The notes beneath the pieces are model-generated. The model worked only from the letters and a program-made list of their open reading frames with translations, was not told the origin of the DNA and did not search any database. A program made the translations under genes and the position numbers. This document shows, piece by piece, positions 45,735-53,565 of a stretch of 64,000 bases of DNA. The DNA lies in assembly GCF_056712565.1 (NCBI RefSeq), contig NZ_JBWXXM010000002.1; one strand, written 5' to 3'. Within the stretch, counting starts at the first letter, position 1. Each line of letters begins with the position of its first letter. The DNA comes from a plasmid.

Positions 45735-45983
45735 ATGCAAACCCAAAAAGAAATTACAGTTGGCCAGATCTGGGAAGAAGTGGATCCAAGACTGATCCGG
45801 AAAGTGCGGGTTGTTGAGGTGGCCTCGTTAGAAGGGCCCAAAGGCATCCTAATCGAAAACGTGGAGTCTGGTCGTAAGAACTGGGCGTCGTCATCCCGCT
45901 TTAATGGAAAGCGTGGAGGGTATCGTCTTATTTGGGGTCAGTTTGGATATCGAAAATTATTGTACGTTAAGGCTATTTTTTGA
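45735..45983 (+). CDS. hypothetical small protein, 3' end replaced by Tn3-family inverted repeat
   Basis: ORF runs into IR beginning at 45934. Confidence 0.3.
45934..45971 (+). repeat. Tn3-family 38-bp terminal inverted repeat
   Basis: GGGGTCAGTTTGGATATCGAAAATTATTGTACGTTAAG; tnpA stop lies inside it. Confidence 0.7.
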
Positions 45984-46947
45984 CCTCTCTACTTTAGCTG
46001 GCCTCAGCCGACGAAACTTACCGGAAGCCGGTATCCGGTTGCTTTTCCAGATATAATCGCCTGTCAGATTGATATGCTCCCAGCCCAACGGCGACAAATG
46101 CGACAGCAGTTGCTCGTTGATCTTCAGCCCTTTACGCTTCAAGGCCTCGACCGCTCTTTCCATGTAGACGGTATTCCACAGCGAGATAGCTGCCGTCAGC
46201 AGCGTCAGTCCACTGGCGCGATAGCTCTGATTTTCCGGTTTCCGGTCCCTGATTTCACCCAGGCGGTGCAGGAATACCGCACGCGCCAGCGCGTTACGGG
46301 CTTCTCCTTTATTCAGTCCCGCCTGTACCCGCCGACGCAGTGCCGGATCGCGGAACCAGTCGAGCATAAACAGCGTTCGTTCAATACGGCCAATTTCCCT
46401 CAGTGCTTTGGCAAGTCCGTTTTGCTTGGGGTAGCTGGCAAGCTTTTTAAGCATCAGGGATGCCGTCACTGTTCCCTGCTTTATCGAGGTCGCCAGACGC
46501 AGCACTTCACGCCAGTGGATTTCAATCTCTTTCAGATTCAGGCTGGTCGTTGATATCAGTGACTGAAGTGCCGGGTATTGGTCCGCTTTCCCTTTGATAA
46601 ACAGCTTCTTGTCGTGGAGATCCCTGATTCGCGGACAGAACGCAAATCCCAGCAGATGCATCAGGGCAAAGACATGGTCGGTGATCCCCGGTAAGCTTTA
46701 GCCTGCTGGCGATATGCTTCAGCAGCGCATCAGAGGGTGGGATTTTTTTATCCGGGGCAAAGCCGACATTTTTCAGATAGCAAAGAAGGACGGCAAAACC
46801 AAAACGGCTGGCGGGTTTACGGTGAGCACTGATAAGCGCCAGATCATGCTCACTGAAATACGCCATTCGGGTCAGCGTTAACTCATCTTCAGGCAATGCC
46901 AGTAATGATTCTCTATCCGACAGAGAAAGAATCTGCCTCCTTGCCAT
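45957..46947 (-). pseudogene. tnpA: Tn3-family transposase remnant (N-terminal ~100 aa joined to C-terminal ~230 aa)
   Basis: MARRQILSLSDRESLLALPEDE and C-terminal [17 protein letters not shown] match Tn21-type TnpA ends; central ~650 codons missing, frame break near 46660. Confidence 0.7.
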
Positions 46948-47114
46948 ATAGTTTCCCTCACAAATTATTCGATGCGGTATTTTTAACAAAAATGGTTATC
47001 GCATAAGGGTACACCCTGACGCCATAATCAAAACGTGACGGCACACGATGAATGACATAACCTATATGCGATAGATTAAGTGCAATAACCTAAATGCGAT
47101 AATGCGGTGGGAAA

Positions 47115-47756
47115 ATGTTCATCAGAGCTTATTTAAGGGCATCGACGGAAGACCAGTTCGCCGATCGAGCAAAAGAGATGCTGGAGCAGTTCGTCCAGGA
47201 ACGGGGGCATAAAATCGCCAGCTATTACCGGGAAAATATCAGTGGCACAAAACTTGAGCGCCCGGAACTGGGACGCTTACTGATGGACAGTCACCACAAT
47301 GATATTTTACTGGTCGAGCAGATAGACCGTCTGACACGTCTCAGCAACAGCGACTGGATGACGCTAAAAAAACAGATAGAACAACATGAGCTGCGAATTG
47401 TCAGTCTTGATGTGCCCACATCATGGCAGGCACTGTCAGATAAGGATCCTTCTCAGGCCGATCCGATCACCCGCGCAGTAATAACCGCCATCAATAACAT
47501 GCTTATCGATCTGATGGCCGCAATGTCACATAAGGACTGGCTGAGCCGCCGCCAGCGGCAAAAACAGGGAATCGAGCGGGCTCATACAATTGGAAAGTAC
47601 CGGGGTAAGCAAGCCGATCAGGAACGGCATCAGAAAGTCCTGTACTACCGGCAGGTAAAGAAACTGAGTATCCGGGAAACGGCGGATGCTACAGGCTACA
47701 GTGCTTCACAGGTTTGCCGGATACAAGCGCTTCATAAAAATAATGAAACTGCCTGA
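47115..47756 (+). CDS. tnpR: serine recombinase / resolvase (Tn3 family)
   Basis: N-terminal MFIRAYLRASTEDQ; C-terminal HTH; divergent from tnpA remnant. Confidence 0.7.
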   Translation: MFIRAYLRASTEDQFADRAKEMLEQFVQERGHKIASYYRENISGTKLERPELGRLLMDSHHNDILLVEQIDRLTRLSNSDWMTLKKQIEQHELRIVSLDVPTSWQALSDKDPSQADPITRAVITAINNMLIDLMAAMSHKDWLSRRQRQKQGIERAHTIGKYRGKQADQERHQKVLYYRQVKKLSIRETADATGYSASQVCRIQALHKNNETA

Positions 47757-48119
47757 AAGGCTGGAATGACGGTGTTTATTTGCAGTCATGGCGTAATAGT
47801 TAGCGCCCTGTAACAACCTTTGTGATTAGCAGACTGATGCATCATCTATGTAAGGAAAGTCCGCTGTGTGCCAGAAGCGGATGTTGCTAACGCCTCAGAG
47901 TGTAAATCTATGGGGGCAGCTCTTACAACAAAACACACCGGTACTGGAAAATTGTTAATGCCGTAGCAGGAGCCGGCTTAAAAACCCTTCATCCTGCCGT
48001 GGATCGCATACAACTAAATTTTACATCGTTGACTGGCTGAGGGGACCACTGCGTCCGGAAGGGGAGTGCCCTAAATCTGCTGTGCAGTATCTGTGAGGAT
48101 TCAAATACCATATTCGCTG

Positions 48120-52022: not shown

Positions 52023-52796
52023 ATGAACATGAATAAATTATTCGCTGCCGTAGTACTGAGTGCAACATTAATGTCCTCTGCTTTTGCCGCCGATCATTAT
52101 CAGCAAATTCGCAATGCAACCGGCAGAATAGAAATTGCGGGTAAAACATTTCTTATCGATCCAATGCTGGGTAAAAAAGATGCTTATCCCGGTTTTGAGA
52201 ATACACACAACAGCCAGCTGCGATTCCCTCTCGTTGAACTGCCGGTAAGCATTGAGGATACCTATAAGGGTGTGGAAGGGATCATTGTCACCCATACGCA
52301 CCTTGACCACTGGGATCCGGAAGCCCAGAAAAAGTTGCCTAAAGATATTCTCATCATCGCCCAGCATGAAGATGATGCAAAATTAATCCGGAGTCAGGGT
52401 TTTAAAAACGTCAAAGTCCTGAATGGTACAATGCAGTTCGGCGATGTTACGGTGGTTAAAACGCACGGTGCTCACGGTACTGACGAAATGTTTGCCTCGT
52501 CACTCAGCGAGATCCTCGGCGAAGCCATGGGCGTCGTTTTCACGGCAAAAGGTCATAAAACCGTCTATGTTGCCGGCGATACCCTGTGGAATGCCGACGT
52601 GAACAAGGCAATCGTGAAATACAAACCGGATGTGTTAGTGCTGAATACCGGTGATGCCCGCAACCTGAATTTCCCTGACGCAGGCATTATTATGGGCACA
52701 AAAGATGTCCGTCACGCCTATGAGATGTTGCCGCAGGCAAAAATCATTACGGTGCATATGGATGCTGTAGGTGATGCTGCCAACTTACTGATTTAG
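52023..52796 (+). CDS. MBL-fold metallo-hydrolase with signal peptide, 3' end truncated by IS1 (paralog of 49225..50004 product)
   Basis: IVTHTHLDHWD; last 9 codons lie in IS1 left end; about 30 C-terminal residues missing versus paralog. Confidence 0.55.
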   Translation: MNMNKLFAAVVLSATLMSSAFAADHYQQIRNATGRIEIAGKTFLIDPMLGKKDAYPGFENTHNSQLRFPLVELPVSIEDTYKGVEGIIVTHTHLDHWDPEAQKKLPKDILIIAQHEDDAKLIRSQGFKNVKVLNGTMQFGDVTVVKTHGAHGTDEMFASSLSEILGEAMGVVFTAKGHKTVYVAGDTLWNADVNKAIVKYKPDVLVLNTGDARNLNFPDAGIIMGTKDVRHAYEMLPQAKIITVHMDAVGDAANLLI

Positions 52797-52824
52797 TGTA
52801 TGATGGTGTTTTTGAGGTGCTCCA

Positions 52825-53100
52825 GTGGCTTCTGTTTCTATCAGCTGTCCCTCCTGTTCAGCTACTGACGGGGTGGTGCGTAACGGCAAAAGCACCGCCG
52901 GACATCAGCGCTATCTCTGCTCTCACTGCCGTAAAACATGGCAACTGCAGTTCACTTACACCGCTTCTCAACCCGGTACGCACCAGAAAATCATTGATAT
53001 GGCCATGAATGGCGTTGGATGCCGGGCAACCGCCCGCATTATGGGCGTTGGCCTCAACACGATTTTCCGCCATTTAAAAAACTCAGGCCGCAGTCGGTAA
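52825..53100 (+). CDS. insA: IS1 InsA
   Basis: 91 aa, begins 55 nt into IS1. Confidence 0.85.
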
Positions 53101-53522
53101 CCTCGCGCATACAGCCGGGCAGTGACGTCATCGTCTGCGCGGAAATGGACGAACAGTGGGGATACGTCGGGGCTAAATCGCGCCAGCGCTGGCTGTTTTA
53201 CGCGTATGACAGGCTCCGGAAGACGGTTGTTGCGCACGTATTCGGTGAACGCACTATGGCGACGCTGGGGCGTCTTATGAGCCTGCTGTCACCCTTTGAC
53301 GTGGTGATATGGATGACGGATGGCTGGCCGCTGTATGAATCCCGCCTGAAGGGAAAGCTGCACGTAATCAGCAAGCGATATACGCAGCGAATTGAGCGGC
53401 ATAACCTGAATCTGAGGCAGCACCTGGCACGGCTGGGACGGAAGTCGCTGTCGTTCTCAAAATCGGTGGAGCTGCATGACAAAGTCATCGGGCATTATCT
53501 GAACATAAAACACTATCAATAA
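53019..53522 (+). CDS. insB: IS1 InsB (expressed as InsAB' by frameshift)
   Basis: 167-aa ORF overlapping insA. Confidence 0.8.
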
Positions 53523-53565
53523 GTTGGAGTCATTACCGGAGAATTGTATCATTAACAGTCTAGTT

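Follow-up and report, generated by a model that had tools for sequence, protein, structure and literature searches.

A doubly damaged TnEc1-like transposon with a probable isothiocyanate-detoxification cargo on a plasmid with an IncHI2-type backbone

We analysed a stretch of 64,000 nucleotides from a plasmid (NCBI RefSeq assembly GCF_056712565.1, contig NZ_JBWXXM010000002.1), which will be referred to as the window, and conclude that its segment 45934-53537 is probably a doubly damaged, immobile remnant of a 9,275-bp TnEc1-like transposon of the Tn3 family with a cargo for isothiocyanate detoxification. In its original form, the element would have consisted, in this order, of the left terminal inverted repeat (IRL), the transposase gene tnpA, the resolution site res, the resolvase gene tnpR, a glxA-type regulator gene, saxA, a gene for a major facilitator superfamily (MFS) transporter, a gene for a periplasmic SaxA paralogue and the right terminal inverted repeat (IRR). 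A sequence-only reading of the window had described a 38-bp GGGG...TAAG inverted repeat at 45934, a transposase reduced to its N- and C-terminal ends, an intact resolvase, a cargo of regulator, metallo-β-lactamase (MBL)-fold hydrolase, MFS transporter and second MBL-fold hydrolase, and an IS1 cutting the second hydrolase, with neither a second Tn3 repeat nor a direct repeat around IS1, and had concluded that a deletion or rearrangement had taken place. All of these features were recovered, and the deletion could be reconstructed by comparison with related plasmids.

The IRL (45934..45971, plus strand; GGGGTCAGTTTGGATATCGAAAATTATTGTACGTTAAG) was found as one exact match which is unique in the window, and none out of 100 shuffled sequences contained a match to the 38-mer. 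Since the same 38-mer constitutes both termini of related transposons on other plasmids, the IRL is not a chance match. Its perfect reverse complement represents the IRR in pCFSAN061772_02 (L005), pFORC82_1 (L004) and one further locus (L009). A scan of both strands of the window allowing up to 16 mismatches yielded no second inverted repeat, neither between 51.6 and 52.8 kb, where the sequence-only reading had considered that an intact one might lie, nor elsewhere, the next best match showing 14 mismatches. The IRL is directly preceded by the left copy of a 5-bp target-site duplication, TATTT (45929..45933), the right copy of which is gone from the window.

The transposase gene is represented by two fragments on the minus strand, a C-terminal one of approximately 242 codons that retains no more than the terminal portion of the DDE domain (45957..46684) and an N-terminal one of 87 codons (46685..46947), which is out of frame with the C-terminal piece. 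The same element with an uninterrupted tnpA is present in pHI1B-o111 (L001). The 995-aa protein encoded there scored 1129 bits against the Tn3 transposase family NF033527 of NCBIfam (cut-off 500) and matched Pfam PF01526 (DDE_Tnp_Tn3) at residues 578-964 as well as PF13700 (DUF4158). Alignment clearly demonstrated that window 45934-46684 corresponds to L001 6001-6751 and window 46683-52769 to L001 8747-14833, with 99.9% identity on each side of a single gap of 1,997 bp and a 2-bp GA microhomology at the junction. As both fragments are collinear with one intact gene, they stem from one source element, excluding an origin from two different elements, which had been named beforehand as a possible objection. 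The identical deletion was observed in each IncHI2 copy examined (L002, pFORC82_1 and pCFSAN061772_02).

The adjacent tnpR gene (47115..47756, plus strand) is intact and encodes a serine resolvase of 213 aa with the Pfam Resolvase domain PF00239 (E = 6.8e-21) and a C-terminal helix-turn-helix (HTH). The protein (WP_001567361.1) is identical in Yersinia, Pantoea and Leclercia copies carrying quite different cargo. The divergent intergenic region between tnpA and tnpR (46948..47114) contains repeated TATCGCAT and ATGCGATA motifs, is 96% conserved across four related transposons and is the putative res site. With tnpR and this putative res intact, the region may still serve as a possible resolution or recombination site.

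The right boundary is formed by an IS1B-like IS1 of 768 bp (52770..53537, plus strand), the sole IS1 copy in the window, which agrees with the IS1 definition in length, ends and open reading frames (ORFs; insA and insB joined by frameshift) and is also annotated in an identical plasmid record. It interrupts the second hydrolase gene after codon 249 of 283, and no direct repeat flanking it was found in the window. Plasmid pCFSAN061772_02 is identical to the window up to position 52769, from where the hydrolase gene continues to its full 283 codons. Its IRR follows at 10675-10712, 337 bp beyond the hydrolase end, and is directly followed by TATTT, matching the 5 bp before the IRL. In p7CC-fosA3 (L006), the target is uninterrupted and TATTT occurs only once. 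Taken together, the duplication in pCFSAN061772_02 and the single copy in p7CC-fosA3 demonstrate normal Tn3-type transposition into the IncHI2 backbone. In pCFSAN061772_02, an IS1 is located 2 kb to the right of the transposon with GGAGAATTG on both flanks, a sequence which p7CC-fosA3 contains once and without IS1. In the window, the right copy of this 9-bp IS1 target duplication is retained at 53538..53546 and the left copy is deleted.

By itself, the window shows only a gene interrupted by IS1, which would also be expected if IS1 had merely inserted into the second hydrolase gene and the right end of the transposon had been lost by an unrelated event or were located elsewhere on the replicon. 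We consider this very unlikely, as the left IS1 junction, inside the hydrolase gene, has no 9-bp duplication, whereas the right junction is the ancestral insertion site, which in pCFSAN061772_02 is 2.5 kb away. The 2,469 bp between these two points (L005 10271-12739) are absent from the window; the hydrolase gene contributed 105 nucleotides to them, with its last 34 codons, and the rest comprised the IRR and three backbone genes, namely an H-NS-family gene and two small ORFs. A search across the window for the missing parts (the central portion of tnpA, the 3′ end of the hydrolase gene, the IRR and the lost backbone stretch) found none of them relocated there. As a further line of evidence, this left end of IS1 was found next to five other positions in the sister plasmids (L005 coordinates 10489, 10399, 10135, 10079 and the ancestral 12739), and in some sister plasmids the right flank of IS1 differs and carries a mer module. 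The occurrence of one IS1 left end at varied positions supports an IS1 adjacent deletion, the signature of which the pattern of the 2,469-bp loss appears to bear. Known IS1-mediated deletions of this type likewise keep the IS1, leave one flank unchanged, replace the other from various distances and form nested series with one IS1 end in common, and nothing is unusual here in this respect. With the loss of the H-NS-family gene and the two small backbone ORFs (within L005 10713-12739), the plasmid is thus without one plasmid-encoded nucleoid-associated protein of its relatives.

The whole element was detected on a 10.2-kb contig of a metagenome-assembled Enterobacter (L111), where it spans 9,275 bp at 642-9916, is 99.73% identical to our reconstruction and has all six reading frames open; its IRL is perfect, and its IRR deviates at one position. 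The comparison with intact homologous transposons, which the sequence-only reading had proposed as a check, thus provided this whole copy in addition to the one in pCFSAN061772_02 with both inverted repeats and the TATTT duplication at the same site. The L111 copy is the only fully intact transposon copy found. A bin with an adjacent run number (SRR10810039, compared to SRR10810004 for L111) is the plant pathogen Lonsdalea britannica, which may hint at a plant-associated source.

The same four genes downstream of tnpR also occur, in one instance, without transposon parts in the chromosome of the seawater isolate E. coli MB06021 (L003 8005-13270; 99.4% identity, without tnpA, tnpR and inverted repeats). 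This might be taken to mean that they are no cargo at all and that DNA of plasmid or chromosomal origin happens to adjoin a small tnpA-tnpR element. Such an explanation is hardly credible, as the genes lie between the IRL and a perfect or near-perfect IRR in pCFSAN061772_02 and L111, and in pCFSAN061772_02 the 5-bp duplication encloses the whole unit, p7CC-fosA3 having the corresponding empty site. Moreover, a related Lelliottia transposon ending in the same IRR contains a diverged version (~80% nucleotide identity) at the corresponding position. In MB06021, the module is found in a prophage-like, CP4-57-like island between antirestriction/CbtA genes and yfjT/ypjK.

These comparisons reveal the history of the cargo-bearing transposon. 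The element entered the IncHI2 backbone at TATTT by transposition, and tnpA suffered one internal, frameshifting deletion of 1,997 bp. IS1 inserted into the backbone 2 kb to the right, giving rise to the 9-bp duplication, and a later deletion proceeding leftwards from the IS1 left end took out the 2,469 bp. Having lost one end, the remnant would be unable to transpose even with a helper transposase.

The cargo most likely represents an isothiocyanate-detoxification unit, directed against the mustard-oil toxins of plants of the cabbage family. The saxA-like gene (49225..50004, minus strand) is intact and encodes a predicted cytoplasmic MBL-fold hydrolase of 259 aa, which matched PDB entry 6BRM, 'isothiocyanate hydrolase SaxA', over the full length with 227 of 259 residues identical (87.6%; E = 1e-156). 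The MBL fold is represented by Pfam matches to PF12706 and PF13483, and a metal motif of the HxHxDH type is present in both hydrolases (HTHTDH at residues 67-72 of the first, HTHLDH at 91-96 of the second). The second SaxA-family gene (52023..52769, plus strand) is truncated; codons 1-249 of 283 are left, and the frame reads 8 codons into IS1, to 52796, gaining the tail GDAANLLI. Its full-length version in pCFSAN061772_02 matched PDB 3RPC (1e-84) and 6BRM (2e-73), with the matches beginning at residue 23-27. The first 22 residues of this protein, MNMNKLFAAVVLSATLMSSAFA, end in AFA, are followed by A and resemble a Sec signal peptide. Between the two paralogues, identity amounts to 48%. Without its last 34 residues and with eight gained from IS1, the second enzyme is probably inactive; the predicted genes for the cytoplasmic enzyme, the regulator and the pump are intact in the window. 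The regulator (48120..49100, minus strand) is of the GlxA/FtrA type, with a DJ-1/PfpI domain and an AraC HTH (Pfam PF01965, PF12833 and PF00165), and retains the conserved cysteine in the motif VGLCLG. The MFS transporter (50242..51423, minus strand; 393 aa, Pfam MFS_1) is weakly similar to multidrug-efflux families. The earlier proposal of a detoxification or efflux unit is upheld, and its addition that the substrate is unknown can be improved upon, as the hydrolases belong to the SaxA family of isothiocyanate hydrolases.

SaxA hydrolyses isothiocyanates (R-N=C=S) to an amine and carbonyl sulfide, is widespread in Enterobacterales and often located on mobile elements, and forms five clusters, each of them active; members that are only 45% identical are both virulence factors on Brassicaceae (PMC7036374). 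Like the SaxA hydrolases known from Pectobacterium, Pseudomonas syringae and cabbage root fly gut bacteria, which include PDB 6BRM, the enzyme described here has the MBL fold and the HxHxDH motif in addition to the high full-length identity. In contrast to those, its gene is located on multidrug-resistance plasmids of the IncHI2 type, whose E. coli and Salmonella hosts came from poultry, pigs, cattle and people, and it lies there inside a Tn3-family transposon together with a second, signal-peptide paralogue. In P. syringae, the genes are written saxCAB, with saxC encoding a transcriptional regulator and saxB being uncharacterised (PMC6922522, PMC12903958). The P. syringae genes saxCAB/F/D/G, which serve survival in Arabidopsis extract, resemble the present cargo in combining regulator, hydrolase and efflux functions, but here a single MFS pump takes the place of RND systems and a saxB-like gene is lacking. 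By analogy, we infer that the regulator is the counterpart of saxC and regulates the hydrolase.

Consistent with a functional unit, the hydrolase gene and the gene for the DJ-1/PfpI-AraC regulator were found adjacent in five genera. The pair is chromosomal in Cronobacter turicensis and Serratia fonticola, with hydrolase identities of 95% and 89%, respectively, and its surroundings there are otherwise unrelated. Plasmids of Lelliottia (from potato rhizosphere) and Pantoea (from seed of Brassica napus) each carry all four cargo genes at ~80% nucleotide identity, with the MFS transporter conserved at 80-84% at the amino-acid level. A cysteine-hydrolase gene adjoins the hydrolase gene in the Lelliottia plasmid; the Pantoea cluster contains it as well, with a LysO-family exporter gene in between. 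Comparison of the sequences demonstrated membership of the SaxA family and the conserved pairing of hydrolase and regulator, and it suggests isothiocyanate as the substrate in these hosts.

In the proposed mechanism, the SaxA-like enzyme would convert R-N=C=S and water into an amine and carbonyl sulfide, and the DJ-1/PfpI-AraC regulator would control expression, the cysteine of VGLCLG being a plausible target for the thiol-reactive isothiocyanate. The MFS pump would export the isothiocyanate or the amine product, and the paralogue with the signal peptide would have worked in the periplasm.

Alternatively, the structure might be as described and the cargo might act on another small molecule (for example, a lactone, an ester or a different electrophile), the SaxA likeness reflecting the scaffold only. 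Pfam and NCBIfam assign the hydrolases only to generic MBL-fold or 'metal-dependent hydrolase' families, and among the best 120 of the 5,579 homologues obtained with 49225-50004 in a protein search (E ≤ 1e-30), none bears the name SaxA, all being annotated as 'MBL fold metallo-hydrolase' or 'UlaG'. Furthermore, the hosts of these plasmids are gut E. coli and Salmonella, and additional roles of SaxA in non-plant bacteria have been remarked upon (PMC7036374). Nevertheless, 87.6% identity to a deposited SaxA is far above the 42-45% found between clusters that are still isothiocyanate-active (PMC7036374), and relatives of the cluster are present on plasmids of bacteria from Brassica seed and potato rhizosphere. 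We therefore regard a different substrate as unlikely, though it is an explanation to be taken seriously, and favour isothiocyanate detoxification. The characterised function of SaxA is not yet reflected in genome annotation.

Several points weigh against the reading as a whole. Concerning the structure, the flanks of the L111 copy (CTCTA and TATGT) form no target duplication, and the tnpA deletion could precede or follow the insertion into the IncHI2 backbone. That IS1 transposase made the 2,469-bp deletion, as opposed to another illegitimate event, is read from the pattern of the endpoints. Concerning the cargo, the function of these exact proteins is likely on the grounds of sequence comparison, and for the MFS transporter the role given is a guess. 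A saxB-like gene, as present in the clusters of Lelliottia and Pantoea, is lacking in the window. The regulator scored 345 bits against the NCBIfam model FtrA, which is under the cut-off of 425, and its correspondence to SaxC is one of analogy. SaxC is of the GlxA type and SaxB isochorismatase-like, reportedly according to Fan et al. in 2011; no statement on the domain composition of Pseudomonas SaxC was found in the literature searched. Finally, SaxA may serve other purposes in bacteria that do not live on plants (PMC7036374).

The 8.5-kb region matches pF1140-1 of a hen E. coli without interruption and at 100% identity, and nearly identical versions occur in plasmids of 180-360 kb from E. 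coli, Salmonella and E. fergusonii. Those sister plasmids which were looked at one by one had been typed as IncHI2A, and the flanking genes (HNH endonucleases, DUF4942 and others) belong to the backbone common to these plasmids. Two paralogous genes with HNH-endonuclease motif are located just left of the insertion site (42449-43264 and 44816-45673), and the insertion point itself lies 5 bp before the end of a small ORF of ~67 codons, which is intact in p7CC-fosA3. Of 46 plasmid records matching the cargo, 42 did so at ≥99% identity; the 46 comprise 24 from Escherichia and 17 from Salmonella, and one Citrobacter from sprouts is among them. No paper mentioning both 'saxA' and 'IncHI2' was found in the literature searched. 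Plasmid-borne saxA as such is already known, according to Welte et al. (2016) as cited in PMC7036374, and so are Tn3-family cargo transposons and IS1 deletions.

The genes for transposition belong to a lineage that is very common in enterobacteria. The segment deleted from tnpA in the window matched 1,435 plasmid records at 95-99% identity, and tnpA is 94.6-97.1% identical at the nucleotide level to a copy labelled TnEc1 by its depositors, to which the likeness to TnEc1 refers. Papers on IncHI2 plasmids list TnEc1 or 'delta-TnEc1' among their elements. TnEc1 and TnEc1-like transposons share with the present element the same type of 38-bp inverted repeat (0-3 mismatches), divergent tnpA and tnpR around a conserved intergenic region, an identical resolvase protein and the location of the cargo between tnpR and the right end. 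They differ in the cargo itself, which is of the sax type here as opposed to a CDF transporter with cytochrome b, an aldo-keto reductase or other sets elsewhere, and in that the element in the window is dead, with tnpA gutted and the right end deleted.

Further members of this lineage were observed in the related plasmids. In p7CC-fosA3, a related Tn3-family transposon (8125-15023) with the same inverted repeats, tnpA ~93% and tnpR ~90% identical, carries a cargo for formaldehyde detoxification (frmR, frmA, a VOC protein and fghA) at a site corresponding to approximately window 54210-54215. The element of pFORC82_1 (6435-10831) has the IRL, insertion site and tnpA deletion of the window, and its homology ends within tnpR (window 47329). 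Beyond this break follow a permease gene, an ArsR gene, another IS1 variant and then an IRR, the outer flank of which (ATTTA) differs from the left duplication. It looks like a hybrid from recombination between two related transposons. In addition, the IS110-family element ISCfr26 was found inside the terminal inverted repeats of several TnEc1-like copies (L007 4885-6281 and ~14940-15997; L016 and L017 ~9885-11200). The group of insertion sequences to which ISCfr26 belongs targets inverted repeats of the Tn3/Tn21 type.

The junction between transposon backbone and cargo in the window is marked by a hairpin, GTCCGCT-GTGTGCCAGA-AGCGGA(C), at 47859..47881 (plus strand). The backbone common to copies with different cargo stops exactly at this hairpin and resumes at GTCCGCTT, ~105 bp from the right end. 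The hairpin occurs in the form GTCCGCT-NNGTGCCAGR-AGCGGAC at every backbone/cargo junction of TnEc1-like transposons, with junction points that vary between copies and are not perfectly constant. Copies were located in L009 (3100-3122, 5414-5462, 6426-6440, 7815-7879 and 13497-13520) and in MB06021 (8005-8027 and 13250-13273), and in the Lelliottia copy similar elements lie between four successive gene modules. The chromosomal cargo of MB06021 starts at the hairpin and carries the first ~15 nucleotides of the right-hand transposon backbone. It was considered whether the IS10 junction in pHI1B-o111 and the point where homology to MB06021 ceases mark a single common boundary. This was rejected, as the homology is ~8-15 nucleotides longer and the two points thus coincide only approximately.

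A pattern scan yielded at least 120 hairpin stretches (genome loci L020-L139), compared to ~9 expected by chance. Most sites are located in chromosomes of plant- and soil-associated Enterobacterales, with others in Hyphomicrobiales, and Pantoea, Cedecea, Mixta and other genera contain several copies per genome. Approximately 20% of the hairpins have a second hairpin 10-19 nucleotides upstream, mostly at 14-19 nucleotides. An Rfam scan of six hairpin loci gave no relevant family, and the sequence matched only an unrelated primer in the literature searched. No recombinase recurs within 4 kb of ~130 hairpin copies, the neighbours being LysR, SDR, GlxA and GNAT genes. An assignment to integron-type gene cassettes or other site-specific recombination sites was rejected as improbable, as no associated recombinase was found, the junctions vary and no attC-type core sites were seen by eye, with no attC model having been run. 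The hairpin is tentatively regarded as a repeat resembling repetitive extragenic palindromes, at which cargo may be captured or exchanged by recombination. That it is instead a dedicated recombination site, swapping gene modules between chromosomes and the transposon lineage in a cassette-like manner without a recognised integrase, appears improbable. The repeat is widespread and apparently undescribed.

Nothing found here overturns existing knowledge on Tn3-family elements, IS1 or SaxA. The empty site, the target duplication and the nested IS1 deletions provide lineage markers for the comparison of IncHI2 plasmids. A gene set which so far has been annotated only as 'MBL fold metallo-hydrolase', 'HTH protein' and 'MFS transporter' can now be given a probable function that is specific and testable. 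No fewer than 42 sequenced plasmids carry this set, most of them multidrug-resistance plasmids of the IncHI2 type in E. coli and Salmonella of food animals and people. If this function holds true, feed based on brassicas or the use of isothiocyanates as natural antimicrobials could select for the trait, which would represent one further non-antibiotic pressure that could help to keep these plasmids. To inhibit the conjugation of mcr-1 plasmids, the use of benzyl isothiocyanate has been suggested (PMC12000558), and an inhibitor of this type might be degraded by IncHI2 plasmids carrying the cluster.

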